From a virus, in the UHGV virus genome UHGV-0378206: DNA of 34,503 nucleotides; one strand, 5' to 3'. This document shows positions 1-21,380 of this stretch, one piece after another (the stretch's first letter is position 1; the number at the start of each line of letters is the position of its first letter). The position numbers and the translations under genes were made by a program. The notes under the pieces were generated by a model. The model was not told the origin of the DNA, did no database searches, and worked only from the letters and a program-made list of their open reading frames with translations.

Positions 1-86
1 ATCATTGAGTTATAGCCATTTTATGGCATGTTTAATGATATTGTAGTAAAATTCACCCATAAATAGTTAACGTTAAGGAGGTACAT

Positions 87-563
87 ATGTTTTCCAAAGA
101 AAAAGTTAGCGATATTTTATTTGCGAATGGTTTTGAGATAAAAAATCAAAGTAATATAGGTGACTCATATACGTTTGATTTAGGTAATGAATGGCAAGTC
201 TCTGTATTTTGTCCTTTTGTTGGGAATGTGTTTGAAGGAAATGTGGATAAATTAAATTATGAGGCAATAAGTGCGTCTTTATTTGATTGTATTGGTACAA
301 AATTTAAATTTAAAAACGTAGTTTCATTAGAAGCTAATATTAAAAGAGTACTCAGAATACTAAAAGAAAACTCTGATGATGATGAGATTTTAAAGTGTGA
401 AAAATGTGGTGTAAGATACGTGCAACCTAAAGAACCTACATTTGGTAAAAAATGGAAGCCATTCCTCTCTTGTAGTGGAATGATAATTAAAGGAACAGGT
501 AAAAACAAAGGGATTCTTTGTGATGGGACATCTAAAAAATTACCGGCAGTAGTTTTGCTATAA
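87..563 (+). CDS. hypothetical protein with C-terminal Cys-rich (zinc-ribbon-like) motif
   Basis: 158-aa ORF with a strong RBS ('aaggagg' about 7 nt upstream of ATG); C-terminal 'CEKCG...CSG...C' pattern; no catalytic motif recognised by eye. Confidence 0.5.
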   Translation: MFSKEKVSDILFANGFEIKNQSNIGDSYTFDLGNEWQVSVFCPFVGNVFEGNVDKLNYEAISASLFDCIGTKFKFKNVVSLEANIKRVLRILKENSDDDEILKCEKCGVRYVQPKEPTFGKKWKPFLSCSGMIIKGTGKNKGILCDGTSKKLPAVVLL

Positions 564-586
564 ATTTAAATATTTGTTTTTATAGT

Positions 587-1117
587 GTGGCAAGGAAAAA
601 CATGTTCGATTTTCTTATGATTAACTCTGAGTATGTGTCTATTGTCGGTGCGGTTTTAGCTTTTGTGGGCACAATTGTACTCGCTTTTTCTATGGGAAAA
701 GTATTGTGGGAATTCATGTTCTCAATTGACGCGATATCTACCAGTATTGAAAGTATAGCAGACGGGGGCGATATTTACGTCTTTCAAGGACTTCATGAAA
801 GAATATCAAAAGCTATTTCTTCATCCAAAAAGCCCACTTGGATTGGGATAATATTAGTATTTATATCAATGCTAATGCAAGGTTATTCTTTATATCTAAG
901 TTTTGAAAGTAATAAAATAAATTCGATGAAGTACGAAAATAGAATAAATGAAGTTCATGACGAAATTACTGAAACAAAAAATACACTGAACATATTAAAC
1001 AGTAAGTTGTTAGCTAAAATTGATGAAAAACAGTTCCAAATAGATGAGCTTAAACGTATTCAGAGAGAACAAAATGAAAGTTTACGGAGCATTATTAAAA
1101 AACAGAAAAAGAATTAA
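587..1117 (+). CDS. hypothetical membrane protein with C-terminal coiled-coil
   Basis: ORF with two hydrophobic helices ('VSIVGAVLAFVGTIVLAF', 'WIGIILVFISMLMQGY') then a charged, heptad-like C-terminus; start is GTG at 587 or ATG at 602 (RBS 'aagga'). Confidence 0.45.
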   Translation: MARKNMFDFLMINSEYVSIVGAVLAFVGTIVLAFSMGKVLWEFMFSIDAISTSIESIADGGDIYVFQGLHERISKAISSSKKPTWIGIILVFISMLMQGYSLYLSFESNKINSMKYENRINEVHDEITETKNTLNILNSKLLAKIDEKQFQIDELKRIQREQNESLRSIIKKQKKN

Positions 1118-1165
1118 TAAATTTAGATGTTGATTTTTTCAACCGTAGGGCAGAAAAAACAAGGC

Positions 1166-1194
1166 AACAAATAGAAGCTCGGCTTCTATTTGTT
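1166..1194 (+). terminator. candidate stem-loop terminator downstream of 587..1117 gene
   Basis: 12-bp perfect inverted repeat 'acaaatagaag'/'cttctatttgt' with a 5-nt loop; weak U-tract, so intrinsic-terminator status is uncertain. Confidence 0.3.
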
Positions 1195-1281
1195 AGCTCT
1201 TGCTCTTCAATTATGAATTAAAAATTTGATATTTAATTATTTTGATGATAACAATGAAGAAATATAAAAAGAGGAGGTGTT

Positions 1282-1479
1282 ATGAAAGCAGTTTATTTAT
1301 TTGGGGTGATTTTTTTAATAATTGATTTGTTGCTTGGTTTTTATATTTTTGATAAAGGCGGGACCGATGCAGCTATCAAATCTGGGCTAATGGGGAATCT
1401 GTCGGTATGTATTATTTTTATGACTGTGGGAGTGTATGTGCCGGTACTTATCTGGTCACTTGCAGAAAGGAAAAAATAG
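1282..1479 (+). CDS. small hydrophobic (membrane) protein, 65 aa
   Basis: Strong RBS 'agaggagg' upstream of ATG; two hydrophobic segments; function unknown. Confidence 0.4.
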   Translation: MKAVYLFGVIFLIIDLLLGFYIFDKGGTDAAIKSGLMGNLSVCIIFMTVGVYVPVLIWSLAERKK

Positions 1480-1518
1480 CTATTAATACAACTCGAATAT
1501 AATAGCTATTACCGGAAC

Positions 1519-2058
1519 TTATTTCTTTATCGAGATCTCTATTTTATTATCCTTTTCGACCAAGGCATATATATCTTTGCTATCCAATGAGCGAATGGAG
1601 ATATACGTGTGGTCATCTGGCTTTTGTTTTACACAGATGACCGGGGCTTCATTTTCGGGATTGGCCAACTTGCTGTATTCATTGGAAAATTCCTTTAGAC
1701 TAATTAATAATTTTATCACTCCAGACAAGCTTACCATTGTAAGGAATAGATAACCCCAGACACTGGAGAAAATATTAGCAAATGTAAGGTTAGAATTAAT
1801 ATTCGAGATGCAATATATATAATATGCATAACTTATTAGAGAGAATAAACTGAGCAACGAATCTACAGACTTTTTTAAAACTTCACTGTAGATATTATGT
1901 GAGAAGAAAAATATAATACCACCGCAAAACAATGGAATTATAAGCAGTATCAATGTCAGGGCCCAATTGTGGTTGTTACCATATATGTAAAGGGAGATGA
2001 AGCATGTAAATGTAGTTAACAATGCGACCAATTTACTGAGAGTAGGATTATTTATCAC
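1519..2058 (-). CDS. multi-pass membrane protein (about 4 TM helices) with short soluble C-terminal domain
   Basis: 179-aa ORF, RBS 'aggag' 7 nt upstream of ATG; hydrophobic stretches through the first ~110 aa; same strand as and downstream of the SIR2-like gene. Confidence 0.5.
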   Translation of the reverse strand: MINNPTLSKLVALLTTFTCFISLYIYGNNHNWALTLILLIIPLFCGGIIFFFSHNIYSEVLKKSVDSLLSLFSLISYAYYIYCISNINSNLTFANIFSSVWGYLFLTMVSLSGVIKLLISLKEFSNEYSKLANPENEAPVICVKQKPDDHTYISIRSLDSKDIYALVEKDNKIEISIKK

Positions 2059-2279
2059 TTGAAACTCCTGTTAAAAACTTCGGTTTTAATTGTCAATAAT
2101 AGATCATATGCTGTAGTTGATATAGTCATATAAACATAACAGTCTTCTGTATGATGTGCTGTTTTTATCTTTGCAGTTTAATAAGTAAATTTTTATTTGT
2201 TCTGAGGGGATTCTATTCTCATAATAACTATGGAAAATGCAATCATCTTTTTTAGATAAAGGGATTGTTAAGTCTTCAA

Positions 2280-3602
2280 TTATTTCCTCTGTAGATAAAT
2301 GAATGTTTTACAGTTATTATTAGAGGTTCTTTCAAAATGATCAGCAAGTTTATTTATTTGCTGATCTTTATACATTTCTATATTGTCAAGTTCAGGACAG
2401 ATTTCACTGAACGCAAAGATTGGAAAGAACTGGGAACTCTGTATCTTCTGTTTATTTAATAATATAATTAATTGCTTATTTGCTTCCTCTACAATCTTGA
2501 AATAATCTTGCATCATTTCAGGCTTGGTTTGAAACTCATACTTAACTCGTTTATGAGAACCTACGGCTAATACCATTTGTCCATTTTTTAACTGGTCTAA
2601 ATCTTCTGTGATTTTTACTTCAATTTCACCACCGCTTTTTATTTCATTCCAGACTTTTTGAACTTTTCTAATATCCATTGCTGAAACTGGTAATATTAAG
2701 TCTGATAAACTTTTATATATAGAAGAGTAATCGTCGGTTTTGATTTTATTTATTCTTATAGTGGTAGCATTCCCTATGTATATATCGTGTTCAGATATGG
2801 CAGTAGATCTTGAATCTTTTTCATATTCCACAAGCAAAAAATTACTTCTAATTTTATTTGCTATATCTGAGTTAGTAGGTACATAGGAAAAAATGGTCTT
2901 TAGAATTTGCTGTATGTTTCTGTCACTAATGCTGTATCCAATAAAGATAACAGGATTATGAATAAATAGTGAGAGTAATTGTGCTCTAATTAGTTCATAT
3001 TTGTTATCGAAATAGTCATAATCTTGTTCTGTAATCGTTAGTTCGTAAGGGGCTGACACACAACCATGTATTTTATAGACAGAACCATAAGGATTACTTA
3101 AAAGTATGCTATTGCCTATTAGTGGTTCAAATTCAAAGAGTTGCTCAATCAATAAATCATAGTTCGTTGTGATGATTGATCCGATGTTTTTTCTCATCTT
3201 AATGAGTTCAGCTATCTCTTCGCTTTTTTCTTCTTTTAATTCTACAGTTGATAATAGCTGAGTAATATATATTTTAAATCTGCTTAAATTAATTCCCTTA
3301 TCCATCTCTTTATAGAAAATATCATTTATTTCTTTAAACTTTCCATTTCTATCGTTAGACAAAGTTTCATTGAATTTTCTTTCTATATCACTGGCAATTT
3401 TATCATATTTATATTCACCATTGATTTGACATTTTGATTTAATATCAAGATATGTTTCTTTATCACCAGTGAGTTCGAAACAAATATATGAGAGTAAACC
3501 ATTCCAATCATAGGAATTAGAGAGATATCGCAAGCTAAACCCAGTTCCGATGAAGAGCACTGGATGATTTCGATACTTTGCTATGAATTCATTAATTTCC
3601 AT
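2280..3602 (-). CDS. SIR2-like (SIR2_2-type) domain protein, probable NAD+-consuming defence effector
   Basis: Ordered motifs in the N-terminal ~230 aa: 'PVLFIGTGFS' (GxGxS), 'IITTNYDLL' (TTNYD), 'YKIHGC' (KxHG), 'VIFIGYSISD' (GYSxxD); C-terminal ~200 aa unassigned. Confidence 0.75.
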   Translation of the reverse strand: MEINEFIAKYRNHPVLFIGTGFSLRYLSNSYDWNGLLSYICFELTGDKETYLDIKSKCQINGEYKYDKIASDIERKFNETLSNDRNGKFKEINDIFYKEMDKGINLSRFKIYITQLLSTVELKEEKSEEIAELIKMRKNIGSIITTNYDLLIEQLFEFEPLIGNSILLSNPYGSVYKIHGCVSAPYELTITEQDYDYFDNKYELIRAQLLSLFIHNPVIFIGYSISDRNIQQILKTIFSYVPTNSDIANKIRSNFLLVEYEKDSRSTAISEHDIYIGNATTIRINKIKTDDYSSIYKSLSDLILPVSAMDIRKVQKVWNEIKSGGEIEVKITEDLDQLKNGQMVLAVGSHKRVKYEFQTKPEMMQDYFKIVEEANKQLIILLNKQKIQSSQFFPIFAFSEICPELDNIEMYKDQQINKLADHFERTSNNNCKTFIYLQRK

Positions 3603-3812
3603 ATCTCACCATAACTTGTTGATTTTATGTGCTTTAATGTGTTACTGTTGACGTATTAAGGTATATCTAACATACATTATTATTCTTTATGCCAGTTGTC
3701 TAGCATATAGTCATAACTCTTTAAGCCAAAAAATTGTCTGTTCGCGCTTTGTCCGTAGTACATGTGTATACTAACATGTATTAGATTTTTCATTATACGT
3801 TTGGTGTAATTA

Positions 3813-4577
3813 ATGCTGAAAATTAACAAATGTCCACTTTGCCGTAAAAATAATGAACTTGTCCATAGCCATTTGATTTCTAAGTTTGTTTATAAAATTA
3901 TTCGCGAATGTCAGCCATATGAGAAAATAAACGAATGTTCTCCAATGATTGTTGATAGCCGTTTAGGTCTTCTACAGAAATCAACACGTCAAGAAAAACA
4001 AATTCTCCTTTGTTCTGCATGTGAAGAGTTATTTTCTGAAAAAGAAACTGCGATGGCGAAAATTATTCGTGAACTGCAAAGAACAGATGTGAGGCAGAAA
4101 AAGATATTAGCATACCAAAAGGAACTGTGTAGCAAATTAAATGGTCAAGACATTCTTTATTTTACAGATGAAAAAGTCTCTACAATTAAATATTTTGCTA
4201 TGTTGAATTTATTTAGAAATATAGTGTGCGAGAGAGTGCCTCGCATAGTAAGAAAAGAGTTAATTAAGATTAGAAAATATCTTCTACGCGAATCTGATTA
4301 TTCTTTGCCATTAATCATTCATGTTAACGACAGTGATTTTTTCCCCATAGCCTCAACTCCATTCAAAATTGATTCTGATAATTGCTATCATTATATTTTT
4401 TTAATTCCTGAGTTTTTATTTCATTTCTTCTTTTGTATGTCACAACTAAACTTGCAGTTTAATGACGTAATGATTATGCCAGAACATCTTTCTTCAAAAG
4501 AAGAAGTGGAAATTCACCTTAGGAACTCAATGAAAGACATTCGCATTGCTAATAATGCAAAGAAATATATAAAATGA
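3813..4577 (+). CDS. hypothetical protein with N-terminal Cys/His cluster
   Basis: 254-aa ORF; 'CPLC...HSH...CSAC' suggests a zinc-binding module; remainder unrecognised; weak RBS. Confidence 0.45.
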   Translation: MLKINKCPLCRKNNELVHSHLISKFVYKIIRECQPYEKINECSPMIVDSRLGLLQKSTRQEKQILLCSACEELFSEKETAMAKIIRELQRTDVRQKKILAYQKELCSKLNGQDILYFTDEKVSTIKYFAMLNLFRNIVCERVPRIVRKELIKIRKYLLRESDYSLPLIIHVNDSDFFPIASTPFKIDSDNCYHYIFLIPEFLFHFFFCMSQLNLQFNDVMIMPEHLSSKEEVEIHLRNSMKDIRIANNAKKYIK

Positions 4578-4625
4578 TTAGCTTTTGATGGACTTCGAGT
4601 GACTTGGCAAATAAGTACGTATTGG

Positions 4626-4916
4626 TTATTTTTTGAGGCATTTAATAGCATAATGAAAAGAAATGTCCTCTAATCCAGTTTTTGTTTTCAAATAAAAACA
4701 TCTGGTGCCGTGTAGTGATCTACCTGCAGTGATTCCTATGCATTCATTCTTACTTTTTTCTTCCCACTCATCGTGGTTTTTAAATAATTCGATCAAAAAA
4801 TTATAATCACTAATGCTCACTTCTTGATGGTCTTTGGTTTTGTTTAGAATGCTTTGTGCCTGACTGATTATATCTTTCTTAGTAGCATAAATAATATTGT
4901 TGATAGTGTATGACAT
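4626..4916 (-). CDS. hypothetical protein, 96 aa
   Basis: ORF with RBS 'agga' upstream of ATG; no recognisable motif. Confidence 0.4.
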   Translation of the reverse strand: MSYTINNIIYATKKDIISQAQSILNKTKDHQEVSISDYNFLIELFKNHDEWEEKSKNECIGITAGRSLHGTRCFYLKTKTGLEDISFHYAIKCLKK

Positions 4917-5115
4917 GTTTTTTCCTATTGTTAGATAACATCGATTTTCTTACCTAATTAGGCATGAGATATTAAATTGTAACATATTTAATTGATAGTG
5001 CTTTCTGGAATCAGATTTTTGAAAGTTTAAAATGTTTTTCAGTTCTATTATTGTAAATAATAAAAACGTATCCTTAACAGAACAGTATGGAATTTCTAAA
5101 AAATCTATAATCATA

Positions 5116-5165
5116 AATTAATTCACTGAAGTTTTGACTGCTAAAATTACTTCAGTGAATTAATT
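5116..5165. repeat. 17-bp perfect inverted repeat (hairpin) just 3' of the 5189..6328 gene
   Basis: 'aattaattcactgaagt' (5116..5132) and its exact reverse complement 'acttcagtgaattaatt' (5149..5165) with a 16-nt loop; likely operon terminator or regulatory/recombination site. Confidence 0.5.
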
Positions 5166-5188
5166 ATGAATGGAAATTTGCTTTGTAG

Positions 5189-6328
5189 TTAGTTTTGTTT
5201 TTGATAGTCTCTTTGATGTTGAAGAATCAATTCAAATTCTCTAACTTCTGCAACTATATGAGTTACATGATGTGTCGTGTCTATTGATACCCAATTCGTA
5301 GTATTACCAACAAATTCTTCATTGGCACATTCATAAATCTTTTTATCACCCCAGCTAAATTTCTCACCTTTATAATGGGGGGATGAAACCAGTATCTTAC
5401 ACAAATCTTGCATTTGTGCTCCCTTTTTACCGGTAGCACGAGAATACCCTCTTACAACGAAAAGGCTATCGTCTATAGTATATCTAATCTTACCGTTAGC
5501 ATCGGGTGCAATGATGTCATCTCCGATAGAGGGATTAACGATACCATAATCTCCAAATACTAAATTTAAATCAGGTTGGAATTTTTTGAATGCTTTCCAT
5601 ACCTTAGCTTCTTTACGGATAACTATACCTTCTGAATTGTGGGTAGGAACCATTCCATTAATATCACTTGTTATTGAACTTCCTGCAATTGAAATAAATT
5701 TAAAATCATACTTGTATAATGAATCCAGTGCTCTCTGCACTGTTTCATTTAGGTCAACTATGGATGTTTTAGTTATATCTTCTAAATCTATCATTACCGA
5801 GCAATTTTCTGGCATTGCACCCAAGGAAGTTAAAATGCCTTCTATTGTTTCAATAAACGGTTCCTCTTCGATCATATCTTCAAAAGCAAAGGAGTTTAAC
5901 CGAATTACAAAGTCAGTATAGCTTGTACCTAATTGTTGCAAAGTAGTTGCATACTCATCATCTTCCCATCGATCATAACCGACGACAGGAATGATATTGC
6001 ACCCAGCATTTCTTAAGGCACTGGTGAGATGACTCAAAATATGCTCTCCTGTTTCAAGAGAAGAGTTTGGAGGCCATCTGCTTATATCAATCCCCATGGG
6101 GAGATTTTGCATCCTTTCGGACAATGTTTTAATTGTATTGTTTAGAAAAAACTCAACTGGATTACCTATGTTAGAGTATTTTTTATTTGTTCTCTGCTTT
6201 TTCGACAGATATGGGATTTCAAAAATCGGAAGCATGTCCCTCATAACGTGGGGATAAGGAAGCATAGACTTAATGGCATCTAACTCACCTTTCTTAGCTT
6301 TTAAAATCGGCATATATTTAGGGTACAT
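5189..6328 (-). CDS. hypothetical protein (379 aa), third gene of the HigB/HigA-ImmA operon
   Basis: ORF starts 14 nt after the stop of the upstream gene, RBS 'gaggtg'; N-terminus 'MYPKYMPILKAKKGELDAIKSM'; no catalytic motif recognised by eye. Confidence 0.6.
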   Translation of the reverse strand: MYPKYMPILKAKKGELDAIKSMLPYPHVMRDMLPIFEIPYLSKKQRTNKKYSNIGNPVEFFLNNTIKTLSERMQNLPMGIDISRWPPNSSLETGEHILSHLTSALRNAGCNIIPVVGYDRWEDDEYATTLQQLGTSYTDFVIRLNSFAFEDMIEEEPFIETIEGILTSLGAMPENCSVMIDLEDITKTSIVDLNETVQRALDSLYKYDFKFISIAGSSITSDINGMVPTHNSEGIVIRKEAKVWKAFKKFQPDLNLVFGDYGIVNPSIGDDIIAPDANGKIRYTIDDSLFVVRGYSRATGKKGAQMQDLCKILVSSPHYKGEKFSWGDKKIYECANEEFVGNTTNWVSIDTTHHVTHIVAEVREFELILQHQRDYQKQN

Positions 6329-6341
6329 ATAGACACCTCGT

Positions 6342-7571
6342 CTACCAAATATGATTAGGGAAATGCTTTCTTACTTCACCTTGACCAACTAAATCAGAAA
6401 ATTGATTGTATTTTCCAGTTTCTCTTCTAATTCTTCCTGCGATTATTGCAGGATGAATTCTTAATTCTCTTGAAAGCTCATCTATCGTGAATGTGCTGGG
6501 ATTTAAGTAAGCTGAACTCCGTTTCCAAATGACGCGAGGAATGAGAGTATCTCTGGCTATTCGATTAGCCTCTGCTTCCATTTTGTCTGTACTATTCTTG
6601 AGTGTTTCAATGTCATCGATAAATGTGTTAGTAGAATCTGCATGTTTCCAGATATGGACTAACTCATGTAAAAGTGTAAACCAGAAATTATCCAAACGAT
6701 CTTGTCTTAAAGTGAGTGCAATAATTGGTCTACCGTCAATATCCCTCAGAGCAGCCCCATCAACAGCAGTACCAGTCAGACAAGGTTCAATGATCACACA
6801 AATCCCATTTTTTTCTAAGAACTCCACCGCTAATAGAGGTCCATATTCGGACCAACTTAAATGTGCGATCTCTTTTAAAAAATCTTTAGTTATGCAATCT
6901 TGCTTAAATTTAGTTGCGAGTTTTTTTTCCCTGGCTTTCTGGACTACTCTTGCAATCCATGCATGTAATTTATAAACAGTTGTAGGTGAGTAAGACTCTC
7001 CGTTAAGTGTTCGCTTGAAGGCTGCTGTAGAAAAATTCGCACCCAAACCCTCAATGAAATTTTTGACTTTTTCTTCTGTAGTCGTTTTTGTTTGCGAGAC
7101 AATGTTTTCTATCCAACCTTTGGAAAGCATTTCTTTTATAGGAAATTTTGACCAATTAACCTCCTCAACTGGAGAACGATTTGCATATCCAGTTTCTGTT
7201 TCTAAGCCCAATAATGTTTGAGGAGACATACCTAAACCTATTGATAAGGCTTTGATCATAGCGACGGTTAAAGGACGTTTTCCCGATAACACCTCTGATA
7301 CACGACTTTTTGTTCCAAAATATGGGGTGAGATCCGCTTGGCGTAAGCCCTGTTCGTCCATTCGGAATTTGATTGCCTCGATTGGATCTACCGGTGTTAC
7401 TGGATAGTTAGCATTTTCATAATTTTCAATAACAACTGTAAGTAAATCAAGACGTTCTGATTCTTCAGATCCTGCAGGAAGATCCAATCTGAGTAATCTC
7501 TCAACTTCTGAAAGGGCCGCATGATATTGTTCTTCAGTTCGAATAACCCGAACTTCAGTAAGTTTACTCAT
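6342..7571 (-). CDS. HigA-like HTH antitoxin domain fused to ImmA/IrrE-type zinc metallopeptidase domain
   Basis: N-terminal region resembles HigA-type HTH antitoxins ('GTKSRVSEVLSGKRPLTVAMIKALSIGLGMSPQTL'); C-terminal half has HEXXH 'LLHELVHIW'; start overlaps upstream stop as ATGA. Confidence 0.7.
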   Translation of the reverse strand: MSKLTEVRVIRTEEQYHAALSEVERLLRLDLPAGSEESERLDLLTVVIENYENANYPVTPVDPIEAIKFRMDEQGLRQADLTPYFGTKSRVSEVLSGKRPLTVAMIKALSIGLGMSPQTLLGLETETGYANRSPVEEVNWSKFPIKEMLSKGWIENIVSQTKTTTEEKVKNFIEGLGANFSTAAFKRTLNGESYSPTTVYKLHAWIARVVQKAREKKLATKFKQDCITKDFLKEIAHLSWSEYGPLLAVEFLEKNGICVIIEPCLTGTAVDGAALRDIDGRPIIALTLRQDRLDNFWFTLLHELVHIWKHADSTNTFIDDIETLKNSTDKMEAEANRIARDTLIPRVIWKRSSAYLNPSTFTIDELSRELRIHPAIIAGRIRRETGKYNQFSDLVGQGEVRKHFPNHIW

Positions 7572-7831
7572 TTAGATACCACCTGGTTAATCACCGCAAT
7601 GCTCCTTTCAAACTGAAATGTTACTTTTATGCCCTGCGATTTAATGCCTCGAACAAAGAACACATAGCACAAATTATCAATCTGCTGTGCTCTGGGGAAA
7701 GCATCTAAAACTCCCTTAGCATCTTTCCAGTAAGCGTTAGTGAGCTCTGCAACCCAAGCGGAAAGCCAAACATCCGTTTCAGGGTTAGTACCACTTAGCA
7801 CTTGAAGCCTTTGCTTGCCGATTAGTCGCAT
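7568..7831 (-). CDS. higB: HigB-family (RelE/ParE-fold) toxin-like protein
   Basis: About 87 aa from the internal ATG with RBS 'ggaga' (ORF extends to 7882); sequence pattern resembles E. coli-type HigB; toxin-upstream-of-antitoxin order as in higBA. Confidence 0.55.
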   Translation of the reverse strand: MRLIGKQRLQVLSGTNPETDVWLSAWVAELTNAYWKDAKGVLDAFPRAQQIDNLCYVFFVRGIKSQGIKVTFQFERSIAVINQVVSK

Positions 7832-8037
7832 TGATGTTCTCCATTTGGGAACCAGAATAAGTGTGGTGATTCTGAATGTCAATACAATGTTCCCATAAGT
7901 GGAACTTGTCGCCTCCAGTTCTCATCTCTTTATGGCTACATAACTCTAAGAATCAATGGAAAGCTCTTTAATAAGAATAAAAATATGATTTAGATCAAAT
8001 GTATATCGGCGTGCCGGGATGCTTATAGTGGGGCGAT

Positions 8038-9267
8038 TTAGGCCGCAATCGCTTTTAGCTTTTGAGCCTGAACATAGTTACTCCACCACTGCATGAGAAC
8101 CACTCGTTCTGCAAGATAATCTGCGCGATTATATGCGGCAATTATTTCATCTTTCTTCGAGTGAGCAAGGGCCGCTTCTAAGACATCTGTCCTGAACTTA
8201 CCCGACTCCTCTGAGGCCGTTCGTGCAATAGATCTCATTCCATGGGCTACAAGCTCTCCACCAAAGCCCATACGGATTATGGCCGCATTCGCTGTTTGTT
8301 CATGCATATGATTGAGTGGAGCTTTGATACTGGGGAAAACCCACTCTCTGTGCCCACTGATGGCTTTCATTGAATCCAAGACTCGCAAAGCTTCTTTGCT
8401 TAGTGGAACTTTGTGAGGCTTCTTCATTTTCATAAACTCAGCCGGGATGTTCCACATCGAGTTGTCAGTATCTATATCGGCCCATCTCGCACGAACGGCT
8501 TCCCCTGGACGAACCCAGGTCAGCAATTGCCATTCAATCAGCAATCTTGTCTCCATACGAACTGAGGCATTGTTTAACACCATTAGGAAGCGGGGTAACT
8601 CGGAAGGGGGTAATGCTGGCATATTCTGTTTTTTAGGCTTACTGAACCGTTGCCCAAGGTTGTCAGCCGGATTGAACTCGATAAGTTCTTCAGTCGCGGC
8701 CCAGCGAAAAATTTCATTTAATCGGGAAATGATTCGCCGTAAGGTTTCGAGGACTCCTCGTTGTTCAATAGGGTCGAGATGTTGCTTTAAGAGTTTGGGT
8801 CGGATCTCATTGATAGGAACCTTACCCAAGCCGGGAAATATATTTCTCTCCAAGCTTCGCCAGATGTCTTCTGCATGGTCTTGTGAGATACCAGAGGTCT
8901 TTACCTTCTCATCCAACCATTTCCTTGCCACGGCTTGGAGAGTGTGTTCAGTAGCATTCTTTAAGGCATTAGCTTTATCGTTGTTATGAACTTGGGGATC
9001 AATGCCATTAGCAAGCAAGGAAAGGTATTCATCTCGTAAGGCTCTGGCTCTTGCCAGTGTAAGGTGAGGATAGGTCCCAAGGCTCATTTTGGTTCTTTTT
9101 TTACTCACTGGCACTGCATACCTGAAATACCAATTCTTCTTTCCTCCTTTCGAGAGGGGAGCGATTCGTAGTATCAAACCATCTCCGTCAAACAAGTTGA
9201 TTTCTTTGTCGGCTGGCTTGGTGCTTTTGATTTCAGTGTCAGTGAGCTTCTTAGCGATTTTTGCCAT
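8038..9267 (-). CDS. intA: tyrosine integrase, IntA/P4 family (CP4-57-like)
   Basis: 'DIWRSLERNIFP' and C-terminal 'HGMRSIARTA...LAHS...AYNR' are integrase catalytic-domain features; sits next to the ssrA 3' fragment as in CP4-57; start at ATG 9267 (RBS 'gaggg'), alternative ATG at 9309. Confidence 0.85.
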   Translation of the reverse strand: MAKIAKKLTDTEIKSTKPADKEINLFDGDGLILRIAPLSKGGKKNWYFRYAVPVSKKRTKMSLGTYPHLTLARARALRDEYLSLLANGIDPQVHNNDKANALKNATEHTLQAVARKWLDEKVKTSGISQDHAEDIWRSLERNIFPGLGKVPINEIRPKLLKQHLDPIEQRGVLETLRRIISRLNEIFRWAATEELIEFNPADNLGQRFSKPKKQNMPALPPSELPRFLMVLNNASVRMETRLLIEWQLLTWVRPGEAVRARWADIDTDNSMWNIPAEFMKMKKPHKVPLSKEALRVLDSMKAISGHREWVFPSIKAPLNHMHEQTANAAIIRMGFGGELVAHGMRSIARTASEESGKFRTDVLEAALAHSKKDEIIAAYNRADYLAERVVLMQWWSNYVQAQKLKAIAA

Positions 9268-9364
9268 TTTGGGACCCTCGGTTTTTGGACCCTTCTTAGT
9301 GGGTCCCATTCAGGGTGCCATATGTGATAGTTCTCAGCAATTCTCACTGGACGACAATAGACGT

Positions 9365-9397
9365 AAAAAAGCCCGCAGAGCTTATGCTATGCGGGCT
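9365..9397 (-). terminator. intrinsic terminator downstream of the ssrA 3' fragment
   Basis: On the minus strand a GC stem 'gcccgca...tgcgggc' is followed by a run of six U. Confidence 0.6.
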
Positions 9398-9432
9398 TAG
9401 TAGACTTCATTGTACTTCAAACAACTAAAAAG

Positions 9433-9477
9433 TGGTGGAGCTGGCGGGAGTTGAACCCGCGTCCGAAATTCCTACAT
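9433..9477 (-). other. ssrA: 45-nt 3' end of tmRNA gene ssrA (att core / direct repeat); not an intact tmRNA gene
   Basis: Reverse complement reads 'atgtaggaatttcggacgcgggttcaactcccgccagctccacca', the acceptor/T-arm 3' terminus of enterobacterial tmRNA; flanking sequence does not continue into the tmRNA body. Confidence 0.8.
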
Positions 9478-9603
9478 ACTATTTTTAATACAATGAAAAC
9501 AGTAGTTTGCGTTTAAAAACAGTGTGTTACTATTATCCTGTGTTTATCCGTTTTACGCATTTTTAATGCTCTGCCGCCAAGTTGTCGCCAATTTTAGGCT
9601 AAC

Positions 9604-19349: not shown

Positions 19350-19439
19350 CGCGCGTTGCAAACCATGTCGATGCTGTTATCATTTGCAGCAAGTTTTCAA
19401 AGTGCTAAAGCATTCTTTAATTCCAAGGTAGGTATAGAT

Positions 19440-21380
19440 ATGATAGCCGGGTTGTTTATCCGTAACGTCAAAACATATCAAGGCATAAATTATATTCCTT
19501 TGACAGACGCTCCAAATTTTAGCGGTTTCTTAGGAAATAATGGGATAGGGAAAAGCTCAATACTTGAGGCATTGGATGTAATATTTAATGCTAAAGAGTG
19601 GAATTATAATACAGCTGTCAAAAAGAGCGGTATAGAAAAAACCAGCCCACATATTGTACCGGTTTTTATATTGGAGGAGGATTTTTTTGATTCTGAGACA
19701 CTCCCTTTTGCAAAAACGCTAGATGCTTTAGCTAGGGAGGTTAGCTTAGAGGATGCTACAAACTCACAAACAAAAACTATTCTTGAAAATTTTATAAGTC
19801 ATCGTGATAGACTTTTTGCACGAAATGATATGCAAGGGCAGTTAATTATTCCTATTGGACGCCTTCATAATAATAATATGTCATTATCTGTTTTAGCAGG
19901 TAGAAGTCTATCTACTATAATGGAAAAAGATATATTTGGTGCCGGATTCAAGTTAAGTGAAGGTATAGAGTTAGCTAAACATTTTCAAGTTTTATTTGAT
20001 TATATCACTGGTAAGTTAGAATATTTATATATACCAAAAGAGATTGATACTGAGGTTTTTACTAAGCTTGAGAGTATTGGAACTCAAGTATTGATGGGTG
20101 AATCGCTGCATGAAATTCTTGATAGAATAGTTGGTGAGTCAAAAATTGGAGAAATCAACAGAGAACTAAGCGGATTTCTTGAAGATATCTCAACGAAGCT
20201 AGTTAACTATACGTATAGAACGCCTTCGGATAGGCAAAAAAGAATTCAAAAAAAAGAAGTCTATAACTTAATTATACAAGCGTTTTTTAACGTCAGAAAA
20301 TTACATAAAACCCACAATGGCGAGCATTTTTTAGAAATTAGTAATTTGAGTTCGGGGGAAAAGCAGAAGGCTATTATTGATGTTGCGCATGCATTGCTGA
20401 CAAAGCATAGAAGTAATAGTGATAATTTAATCATAGCCATAGATGAGCCTGAGTCTTCATTGCACATGTCTGCTTGTTTTGAACAATTTCAAGCGTTATC
20501 AGAACTAAGTTTAGGATGTAGGCAACTATTGTTTTCCTCTCATTGGTATGGTTTTCTCCCCACCTTGGAAAAGGGAACTGTTACAATAATAACTAAAAAA
20601 AATAATGAGCATCTTTTTGATCTGATCAATTTAGCATCTTACCGGGAAGAAATAAAACAACTTGTTCGAGATAGTAGGGGAAAGTTACCATTTGATATTA
20701 GAATTAAAAGTATGAATGATTTTACTCAGTCATTATTATCTAGTGCAACAGGTGAGAAACCATATAATTGGTTGATTTGTGAGGGTTCATCGGAAAGAAT
20801 TTATCTTTCAGCATATTTTAAGGATTTGATAAAGAATCATAATCTTCGTATTGTACCTGTTGGGGGGGCGTCGGAAATTAAAAAAATATATAACTATCTC
20901 TCTGCCTGCTATAAGGATGTCGAAGGGGAGATTACCGGAAATATATATTTGTTAGCTGATACTGATAGCCAGTTGGTCAGATATGACGTCGGAACATATC
21001 AAAGATTACATTGTAAAAGATTTGTTTATGATTCGTCTAAAAACAGGGCGATCTTAGTTAAGATAGACACAAATCCGGTATCGCCTGCAACTGAGATAGA
21101 GGATGTTTTGAACGCAAAAATCTATTACCAGACCTTATTGTCATTTGCTGGTGATTACGATTATTTAAGTTTCATTAATAATATTGATGCTCCAAGTGAT
21201 AATCTGGAATCTTACTCAGCTCTTGATCTCAGAGTTAGTGAAAAAAATGCCATAAATAGATTTTTTGATGATGGAAATAATAAGTTTTTATTCGCAAAAA
21301 GATATGTTGAATTAATGACGGAAGAAAATAGTGTTCCAGAGTGGATTAGTGAGATTAGAGAGGTAATGACTTCAGCTTAG
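19440..21380 (+). CDS. ABC-type ATPase fused to Toprim-like nuclease domain (OLD-family-like; possibly fused PARIS AriA-AriB-like) at the P2 old/tin cargo position
   Basis: Walker A 'GNNGIGKSS', ABC signature-like 'LSSGEKQ', Walker B 'LIIAIDEPESSLH'; C-terminal 'LICEGSSER' and 'LLADTDS' fit Toprim E / DxD motifs; AT-rich; preferred start ATG 19440 (RBS 'aaggtagg'), ORF opens at 19356. Confidence 0.75.
   Translation: MIAGLFIRNVKTYQGINYIPLTDAPNFSGFLGNNGIGKSSILEALDVIFNAKEWNYNTAVKKSGIEKTSPHIVPVFILEEDFFDSETLPFAKTLDALAREVSLEDATNSQTKTILENFISHRDRLFARNDMQGQLIIPIGRLHNNNMSLSVLAGRSLSTIMEKDIFGAGFKLSEGIELAKHFQVLFDYITGKLEYLYIPKEIDTEVFTKLESIGTQVLMGESLHEILDRIVGESKIGEINRELSGFLEDISTKLVNYTYRTPSDRQKRIQKKEVYNLIIQAFFNVRKLHKTHNGEHFLEISNLSSGEKQKAIIDVAHALLTKHRSNSDNLIIAIDEPESSLHMSACFEQFQALSELSLGCRQLLFSSHWYGFLPTLEKGTVTIITKKNNEHLFDLINLASYREEIKQLVRDSRGKLPFDIRIKSMNDFTQSLLSSATGEKPYNWLICEGSSERIYLSAYFKDLIKNHNLRIVPVGGASEIKKIYNYLSACYKDVEGEITGNIYLLADTDSQLVRYDVGTYQRLHCKRFVYDSSKNRAILVKIDTNPVSPATEIEDVLNAKIYYQTLLSFAGDYDYLSFINNIDAPSDNLESYSALDLRVSEKNAINRFFDDGNNKFLFAKRYVELMTEENSVPEWISEIREVMTSA

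Follow-up and report, generated by a model that had tools for sequence, protein, structure and literature searches.

The stretch of DNA analysed here, 34,503 nucleotides of the virus genome UHGV-0378206 (hereafter the window), carries near its start three co-oriented open reading frames (ORFs) on the plus strand, p1, p2, and p3. An earlier note made from the letters alone had described them as one three-gene block with a layout often seen in abortive-infection or exclusion systems. Comparison with related loci divides this block. We consider it very probable that p1 and p2 constitute a bicistronic operon of a mobilizable island integrated at ssrA, on the side of the cargo boundary that belongs to the backbone, and that p3 stands apart from it. 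As for function, p1 may be a conflict-related, non-enzymatic DNA-binding protein borne on mobile genetic elements (MGEs), with p2 as its lineage-specific membrane partner. Architecture and function taken together, this appears to us the best explanation of the region as a whole. We hold the combined explanation at a little below even confidence, and its functional part at slightly less.

The three ORFs were found at 87–563 (p1), 587 or 602–1117 (p2), and 1282–1479 (p3). The strong ribosome-binding sites (RBSs) attributed to all of them were present for p1 (158 aa; AAGGAGG 7 nt before ATG 87) and p3 (65 aa; GAGGAGG before ATG 1282), whereas that of p2 is moderate (AAGGA, 5–6 nt before ATG 602). 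The p2 ORF as listed opens at GTG 587, which is not preceded by an RBS. We placed its start at ATG 602 (602–1117, plus strand, 171 aa) because of the RBS, the RefSeq start in a 99.7% identical Escherichia coli locus, and the length of the close homologues, all full-length members of which (P0018–P0027 and P0029) have 171 residues. The probability of such frames arising by chance was estimated per start in the local base composition, where stop codons should occur once in ~14 codons, and the long p1 and p2 frames are therefore very unlikely to be fortuitous (P ~6e-6 for 158 codons and ~2e-6 for 171 codons). A frame of 65 codons is not unusual by this estimate (P ~0.007 per start). The p3 sequence is nevertheless conserved, with 72% amino acid and 83% nucleotide identity to a copy in an unrelated context and a dN/dS of 0.39. 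The dN/dS values are 0.12–0.17 for p1 (0.17 against L008, at a dS of 0.37, and 0.13 against Shewanella) and 0.23–0.49 for p2. These values indicate purifying selection on all three genes and independently support their being coding sequences.

Positions 1–9480 of the window are 99.7% identical to E. coli 2021CK-01361 (NZ_CP107720), in which the counterpart makes up the right-hand portion of an island of ~17 kb inserted at the ssrA 3′ end. Among 5,426 complete genomes of E. coli, the p1–p2 DNA is present in only one. Within this island, positions 1–1212 (plus strand) make up a conserved module of promoter region, p1, p2, and a hairpin, continuous with the relaxase/MobC backbone that lies to the left of the window. 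The spacer between p1 and p2 is 38 nt long and contains no hairpin. The hairpin downstream of p2 (1166–1194) has a perfect 13-bp stem (AACAAATAGAAGC-NNN-GCTTCTATTTGTT); a run of A lies upstream of it, and the minus strand bears a run of T. Its stem is 100% identical in all 11 p1–p2 loci checked, although the coding DNA around it has diverged by as much as 14%; variation within the hairpin is confined to the loop. In L008, it is located between convergent genes. In the simplest reading, the hairpin is probably a bidirectional terminator and would mark the left edge of the cargo hotspot of the island, that is, the boundary between the conserved module and variable cargo.

The blastn comparisons delimit the module in the same place. 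Positions 1–1212 are 97% identical to L012–L016, and positions 23–1204 are 86% identical to L008–L011. Rightward homology among the island variants stops at about 1204–1212, a few bases past the hairpin and between p2 and p3; leftwards, the homology of the block continues in L001 into mobC and the relaxase gene. Three island variants can be distinguished by what follows the hairpin. The window type (the window, L001, L020, L031, and L032), whose copies are 98.6–99.7% identical at the nucleotide level where measured (L001 and L020), carries p3, SIR2, and PD-Lambda-2 as cargo. The second type (L012–L016) carries an ATP-grasp gene and Gabija (OLD-TOPRIM plus UvrD), and the third (L008–L011) a set of response-regulator, HEF_HK histidine-kinase, and DNA-methylase genes. 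The p1 and p2 genes keep the same order and spacing at 18 of 18 enterobacterial loci, with p2 identities of 82–100%. Adjacency, order, spacing, and a shared terminator are thus as in a two-gene operon, within one island lineage. A distant relative of the island, L002 (65–70% backbone identity), lacks the pair.

The claim that the three ORFs form one block did not hold for p3, which is cut off from p2 by the homology break and the hairpin. Its coding sequence begins 70 nt past the break. The p3 unit (1218–1479, plus strand) consists of 64 bp of upstream sequence and the coding sequence, and positions 1218–1478 are 83% identical at the nucleotide level to a segment of L017–L019 over exactly this span, in a region of 24% GC without p1 or p2. 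Consistent co-occurrence of the three genes across genomes, proposed in the earlier note as a check, was not observed, and the refuting case named there, genes that occur independently of one another, was borne out: p3 is absent from 14 of the 18 p1–p2 loci, p1 occurs alone in 21 loci, and p3 is found without the other two in L017–L019. It is missing from L008–L011; L012–L016 carry in its place an unrelated 75-aa ORF with two transmembrane (TM) segments; and two copies (P0038 and P0039) are frameshifted. The description of p3 as a 65-aa hydrophobic protein was correct; its two hydrophobic segments make it a two-TM hairpin. On these comparisons, the variable cargo begins with p3, an unrelated gene for a small membrane protein that was apparently acquired apart from p1–p2.

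Small membrane genes were also noticed elsewhere. In L012–L016, the first cargo to the right of the hairpin (L012, 8687–9266) encodes small hydrophobic proteins unrelated to p3 in sequence: the 75-aa two-TM ORF (plus strand) and a 126-aa ORF with about four TM segments (minus strand), followed by a 68-aa ORF and the ATP-grasp (MvdD-like) gene. The metagenome contigs L017–L019 contain at least six small two-TM ORFs (63–97 aa), the p3 homologue among them, interleaved with paralogous proteins of ~375 aa that share an N-terminal FPEYS.LT.SEIF motif and a C-terminal K(V/R)KRI tail. This run looks like a polymorphic array of the effector/immunity type; no Pfam match was obtained there.

The 158-aa product of p1 has the Cys-rich C-terminus reported for it, with four invariant cysteines of zinc-ribbon type. 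Its AF2 model is confident and compact (pLDDT 87, pTM 0.82). Residues 1–100 form an acidic alpha/beta domain (isoelectric point (pI) 4.7) in which six strands follow one helix and precede another, and residues 101–158 a basic four-Cys ribbon (pI 9.8), in which Cys104, Cys107, Cys129, and Cys145 are invariant throughout the family. The Pfam family Zn_ribbon_Top1 (PF01396) was matched by 5 of 34 p1 relatives (best E 4.2e-5), and the TOP3B ribbon by one. The suggested checks by remote homology and structure prediction gave the confident p1 model and no significant match in the PDB or BFVD, and the p2 model was poor. Foldseek searches of the p1 model against both databases returned nothing significant, and the best hit of a sequence-profile search of the PDB with the p1 alignment (E 0.02) was judged spurious. 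A relation of p1 to its SIR2 neighbours, suggested by a weak Pfam SIR2 match (E 0.1) and by a SIR2 cassette upstream of p1 in L003, was considered and rejected because the match appears limited to the zinc-binding insert, as inferred from the residues covered (49–150), and because the neighbours differ from locus to locus.

The p1 family is small and dispersed. A word-indexed search retrieved 17 relatives, in Enterobacteriaceae and Shewanella, and only 48 clusters at 50% identity emerged when 1.84 billion representatives were searched exhaustively by profile. The members are almost all stand-alone proteins of ~150–175 aa, some of them from high-GC organisms. Their surroundings follow their similarity to p1. 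At all 18 loci with p1 at least 87% identical, all enterobacterial, mobC lies upstream and p2 downstream; at all 21 loci with p1 at most 63% identical, all outside Enterobacteriaceae, neither p2 nor p3 is present.

Several of these distant copies are integron cassettes. Shewanella L003/L004 has a cassette array beside a divergent integron integrase (TIGR02249, 393 bits with the cutoff at 265). In this array, p1 is the fourth ORF and the fifth unit bounded by attC, and an ATAACAA...GCGTTAT attC site stands after every ORF. The identical p1 gene and attC site recur in a second genomic context, L005, where the downstream attC alone was found. L039 is a further integron (IntI, TIGR02249, 421 bits against a cutoff of 265), with p1 followed by attC, and attC-like sites also follow p1 in L038 and L045. 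The p1 homologues in L003/L004 and L039 therefore have what defines an integron cassette (an ORF with attC, in an array beside intI); no attC-like site flanks the copy in the window, which is not a cassette by this definition. Another copy lies in the accessory region of a P2-like prophage: in the IMG/VR contig L030, p1 follows the P2 genes gpU and gpD and precedes genes for a TM-coiled-coil protein and a Ser/Thr kinase. The TM-coiled-coil protein was considered as a relative of p2 and found to be unrelated (hhalign probability 0.2). The IMG/VR scan gave one p1 locus and no p2 locus, and tblastn with p1 and p2 gave no match in 72,556 plasmids or 50,697 phage genomes. Neighbours of p1 that match PADLOC models at unrelated loci are SIR2 (L003), PDC-S15/FRG (7e-102, L021), PDC-S20/KAP NTPase (3e-83, L022), and a PD-T4-6/mad6-like kinase (1e-44, L030). 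In summary, p1 is autonomous and moves among integrons, a prophage, and islands, often beside defence genes. A literature search with the RefSeq accessions and Shew_2731 found no paper.

One p1 homologue has a different setting. In L029 (143–2514), it follows genes for a ParA-like ATPase and a 220-aa RelA_SpoT protein (small alarmone synthetase-like). The called start of p1 overlaps the RelA_SpoT stop there, and the resulting N-terminal extension is probably a gene-calling artefact.

The product of p2 is the two-TM protein with a coiled-coil tail described previously as having about 170 residues. It has 171, with hydrophobic segments at ~9–36 and ~79–101 and a long, coiled-coil-like C-terminal helix (residues 77–170), the distal part of which is predicted with high confidence. 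The loop between the TM segments, ESIADGGDIYVFQGL, is conserved, and it is also recognizable in the 40% identical P0032 (ESxxxGGDIYVFxGL). The AF2 model as a whole is all-helical and of low confidence (pLDDT 65, pTM 0.34), which makes it too poor for a fold search. Neither p2 nor p3 matched a SLATT or holin hidden Markov model. The best Pfam match of p2 is to the spanin-like DUF2570 (16.6 bits against a cutoff of 26.6, E 0.008), and it covers the coiled coil only. The p2 family is essentially restricted to the enterobacterial island lineage.

The domain composition of p1 and its associations suggest a tentative mechanism. We suppose that p1 is a conflict protein that is self-sufficient, moves horizontally, and works without enzymatic activity; its basic topoisomerase-type ribbon would bind DNA, probably single-stranded or entering DNA, and its acidic, chaperone-like alpha/beta domain would bind a protein partner. 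A protein with a DNA-binding ribbon and a partner-binding domain could act stoichiometrically, and p1 may in this manner sense the invading DNA of phages or MGEs or keep it out. Within the enterobacterial island, p1 would be coupled to p2, which may tether it at the inner membrane, the site of foreign DNA entry, or may itself serve as a membrane effector. Features consistent with this proposal are the Top1-type ribbon in relatives of p1, the charge dipole and compact model of p1, and its defence neighbours, which in the island include Gabija in L012–L016 and PDC-S25 and PD-Lambda-2 in the window.

A number of observations weigh against this reading. Guilt by association cannot distinguish defence from counter-defence, and p1 has no effector domain, which makes defence by p1 alone hard to picture. 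The p1 of the window itself scores below significance for Zn_ribbon_Top1, and its only ribbon match is Zn_ribbon_recom (E 0.09). The GTxHR motif that runs through the family, distant members included, reads GTKFK in the subfamily of the window, so that a catalytic role for the motif is unlikely. The topology of p2, as read from its sequence, is ambiguous under the positive-inside rule. Moreover, p2 is missing at the p1 loci outside the island lineage, and the adjacency of p1 and p2 may therefore reflect shared descent alone; the distant p2 relative P0032 is preceded by a gene of at least 207 aa, longer than any member of the p1 family. None of the three proteins matched a family in PADLOC-DB v2 at E ≤ 1, where genes nearby did have matches (PDC-S25, PD-Lambda-2_C, and HamC-like DUF3223), and searches of Pfam, PHROGs, and NCBIfam gave nothing significant for them. 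By these profile searches, p1, p2, and p3 belong to no curated family or defence system among those tested. The same searches bear on the possibility, raised in the earlier note as a refutation, of clear homology to housekeeping or phage structural proteins: no such homology emerged, with no PHROGs match below E 0.01, no NCBIfam match, and no match in the 50,697 phage genomes.

Among other explanations, the one that fits best is that p1 and p2 are functionally independent, p1 being a nucleic-acid-binding accessory protein and p2 an inner-membrane protein, for example of the superinfection- or entry-exclusion type, which share a transcript through descent of the island. This would account for the absence of p2 beside p1 in all 21 non-enterobacterial loci, for P0032, the sole distant homologue of p2, not lying beside a p1-sized gene, and for the fact that every p1–p2 locus belongs to a single unbroken conserved block together with the relaxase and mobC genes. 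The tight spacing of 38 nt, the single shared terminator, and the lack of a hairpin between the genes argue for the opposite, as does purifying selection on both genes over ~14–20% DNA divergence and three cargo swaps. We regard independence of the two genes as possible but doubtful.

More improbable is the idea that p1 and p2 are establishment or anti-defence genes of a leading region, which would reach the recipient ahead of the rest and, in the manner of PsiB and Ard, shield the incoming single strand or dampen the responses of the host. The pair adjoins the MobC-like and relaxase genes and is oriented divergently from them, its members being the first ORFs across the presumed oriT, and p1 combines a predicted zinc ribbon of the single-stranded-DNA type with an acidic domain. 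Relaxases usually lie in the lagging region beside oriT, whereas the first ~30 ORFs of the leading region are enriched in anti-defence genes (PMC11541004), a rule with which the position of the pair opposite the relaxase agrees. However, leading-region anti-defence genes are expected to recur on plasmids, and neither p1 nor p2 was found by tblastn in the 72,556 plasmids. The p1 gene is mostly a chromosomal-integron cassette or a prophage accessory gene, in contexts without conjugative transfer, and L002, with a related island backbone, does without the pair. An oriT was not located, and the mobC–p1 spacer, inspected by eye, has no recognizable nick-site motif.

We consider it quite improbable that p1 and p2 are a toxin–antitoxin-like addiction pair that stabilizes the island, with p2 as membrane toxin and the upstream p1 as antitoxin or regulator. 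A small, predicted DNA-binding protein is indeed followed by a small membrane protein on an MGE, and integron arrays and islands are rich in toxin–antitoxin modules. Nonetheless, p1 has a much broader family than p2 and normally occurs alone, at odds with the obligate co-occurrence of such pairs, neither protein matched a toxin–antitoxin family in Pfam, NCBIfam, or PADLOC, and p2 is unlike known membrane toxins or holins, its best match (DUF2570) being below the cutoff. A single abortive-infection or exclusion system made of a soluble sensor (p1) and two membrane effectors (p2 and p3) is hardly tenable, despite the co-orientation of the genes within a defence island and their joint presence in the window, L001, L020, L031, and L032, because these loci are near-identical copies of one island where measured (L001 and L020), p3 is separated from p2 by the break and terminator hairpin, missing at 14 of the 18 p1–p2 loci, found alone in L017–L019, and frameshifted in some copies.

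The surroundings of the operon agree with the placement of the genes in an AT-rich, defence-like island. The first 8 kb of the window have a GC content of 29–40% (~31% over the first 5 kb), and the later DNA one of 55–60%; PDC-S25 and, further on, PD-Lambda-2 are found in this part. In the order of the island, its left end, before the window, comprises two tyrosine recombinases and a large "DNA-binding protein", and the relaxase (PF03432) and MobC/NikA-like genes lie directly to the left of position 1. They are followed by p1, p2, p3, and a 179-aa multi-TM ORF without RefSeq annotation. Next comes the SIR2 gene (2280–3602, minus strand), with which the three ORFs are convergent as had been noted and which matches PADLOC PDC-S25 (2e-149). 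A 254-aa Cys-rich protein (3813–4577, plus strand) is encoded between SIR2 and the DUF3223 (HamC-like) gene (4626–4916, minus strand). The PD-Lambda-2-type set (5189–7882, minus strand) consists of the Beta protein (PD-Lambda-2_C, 5e-156), a 409-aa ImmA/IrrE-HTH protein, and a HigB-like toxin. It is adjoined by a P4-type integrase gene (8038–9309) at the right end of the island. A P2-like (Peduovirus-type) prophage (~9480–34503) begins directly after the ssrA-derived end of the island. Its genes in the window include those for an HNH endonuclease, an integrase, CI, CII, a Dam methylase, a PAPS-reductase-like protein, and gpA, as well as portal, terminase, capsid, lysozyme, baseplate, and tail-fibre genes. 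ARAGORN and Rfam both found no tmRNA gene in the window, and Rfam matched no RNA element in the p1–p3 region or the whole window.

Several of these neighbours have features of their own. The SIR2 gene has a 1-nt deletion near 2306 relative to the intact 499-aa genes of NZ_CP107720 and L002, so that it reads as 440 aa with an altered C-terminus; this version would be either a pseudogene or a sequencing error. The DUF3223 gene has a 13-nt insertion (4665–4677) relative to NZ_CP107720 and encodes 96 aa in the window and 137 aa there. The putative 179-aa ORF (1519–2058, minus strand, GTG start), located downstream of SIR2, would encode three to four hydrophobic segments and a soluble tail of ~55 aa. 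It is 99% conserved in L031 and L032 and is left unannotated by RefSeq in the near-identical E. coli locus. In L020, a deletion of window positions 1690–3589 removes SIR2 and most of this ORF, and the gene for the 254-aa protein is kept. The latter protein has CxxC...CxxC motifs, no Pfam family, and three PHROG matches of unknown function (best 3.6e-8). At the left end of the island (L001, 7446–11024; L012, 1–3970), the two tyrosine recombinases are adjacent to each other and accompanied by a "DNA-binding" protein of 550–625 aa, in a trio-like layout. A Gamma-Mobile-Trio (GMT) island was considered for this layout and found unsupported; the recombinases gave no match to recomb_GmtY, and NF041502 integrase_1 was matched below its cutoff. 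The prophage carries an OLD-like AAA/TOPRIM ATPase gene (19356–21380, 34% GC) in its defence hotspot, where relatives have a GapS1 gene.

Taken soberly, p1–p2 and p3 are an accessory gene pair and a stray small gene of a kind ordinary for a defence island, with a mobile p1 family that is mildly interesting. The main value of the analysis at present is corrective, in that the "three-gene system" is to be split, with p1–p2 alone as the unit; the conserved hairpin is a useful marker of where the cargo hotspot begins on the left in this family of ssrA islands. A bolder proposal, which we consider rather unlikely, is that the p1 family is a new, self-sufficient, and non-enzymatic anti-phage or anti-MGE factor, built of a novel acidic alpha/beta domain and a topoisomerase-type ribbon, which spreads as a single-gene integron cassette and as prophage or island cargo, and that in Enterobacteriaceae it recruited p2 as a dedicated membrane partner to become a new two-gene exclusion module. 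If p1 were a working defence or counter-defence factor, a very small and domain-poor family would be added to the conflict repertoire. It would also offer a clean case of one gene that moves among integron cassettes, P2-like prophages, and mobilizable islands and gains a membrane partner.

Known systems resemble p1 and p2 in different respects. The RexA/RexB exclusion system consists of a soluble DNA-sensing protein and a membrane protein with four TM segments, and p1–p2 would be analogous to it in layout, in that the gene for a small, soluble, putatively DNA-binding protein precedes one for an inner-membrane protein on an MGE. However, there is no sequence or profile similarity to RexA/RexB, the membrane protein p2 combines two TM segments with a coiled coil, and in most genomes p1 occurs on its own. 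With respect to the acidic domain of p1, the alpha/beta fold of type III secretion system chaperones and YbjN-like proteins was compared; Foldseek gave nothing significant, and the loci have no type III secretion context. The ribbon of p1 resembles the C4 ribbon of topoisomerase I (PF01396) in its CxxC...FLSC...C pattern, the four invariant cysteines, and its basic surface. In contrast to that ribbon, it is attached to a novel N-terminal domain and not to a topoisomerase, nuclease, or helicase, and its spacer between the third and fourth cysteines has 15 residues, whereas the spacers in Top1 fingers are generally shorter. The genes of leader operons and leading regions (PsiB, Ard; PMC11541004) are similar to the pair in that p1–p2 lies directly across from the relaxosome genes and p1 is small and acidic with a part that possibly binds single-stranded DNA; they differ in that the p1 family occurs on 0 of 72,556 plasmids and most of its members are in non-conjugative contexts.

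The closest known kind for p1 is the integron gene cassette of unknown function. In the window, the p1 copy departs from this kind, being without attC and located in a mobilizable island in an operon with p2. The homologues agree with it closely: in at least two integrons they are attC-bounded single-gene cassettes beside a bona fide IntI, and they are small and without a recognizable domain, with a SIR2 cassette nearby. About one-third of the tested integron cassettes of unknown function conferred phage resistance, many of them without recognizable domains (bioRxiv 10.1101/2024.07.02.601719).

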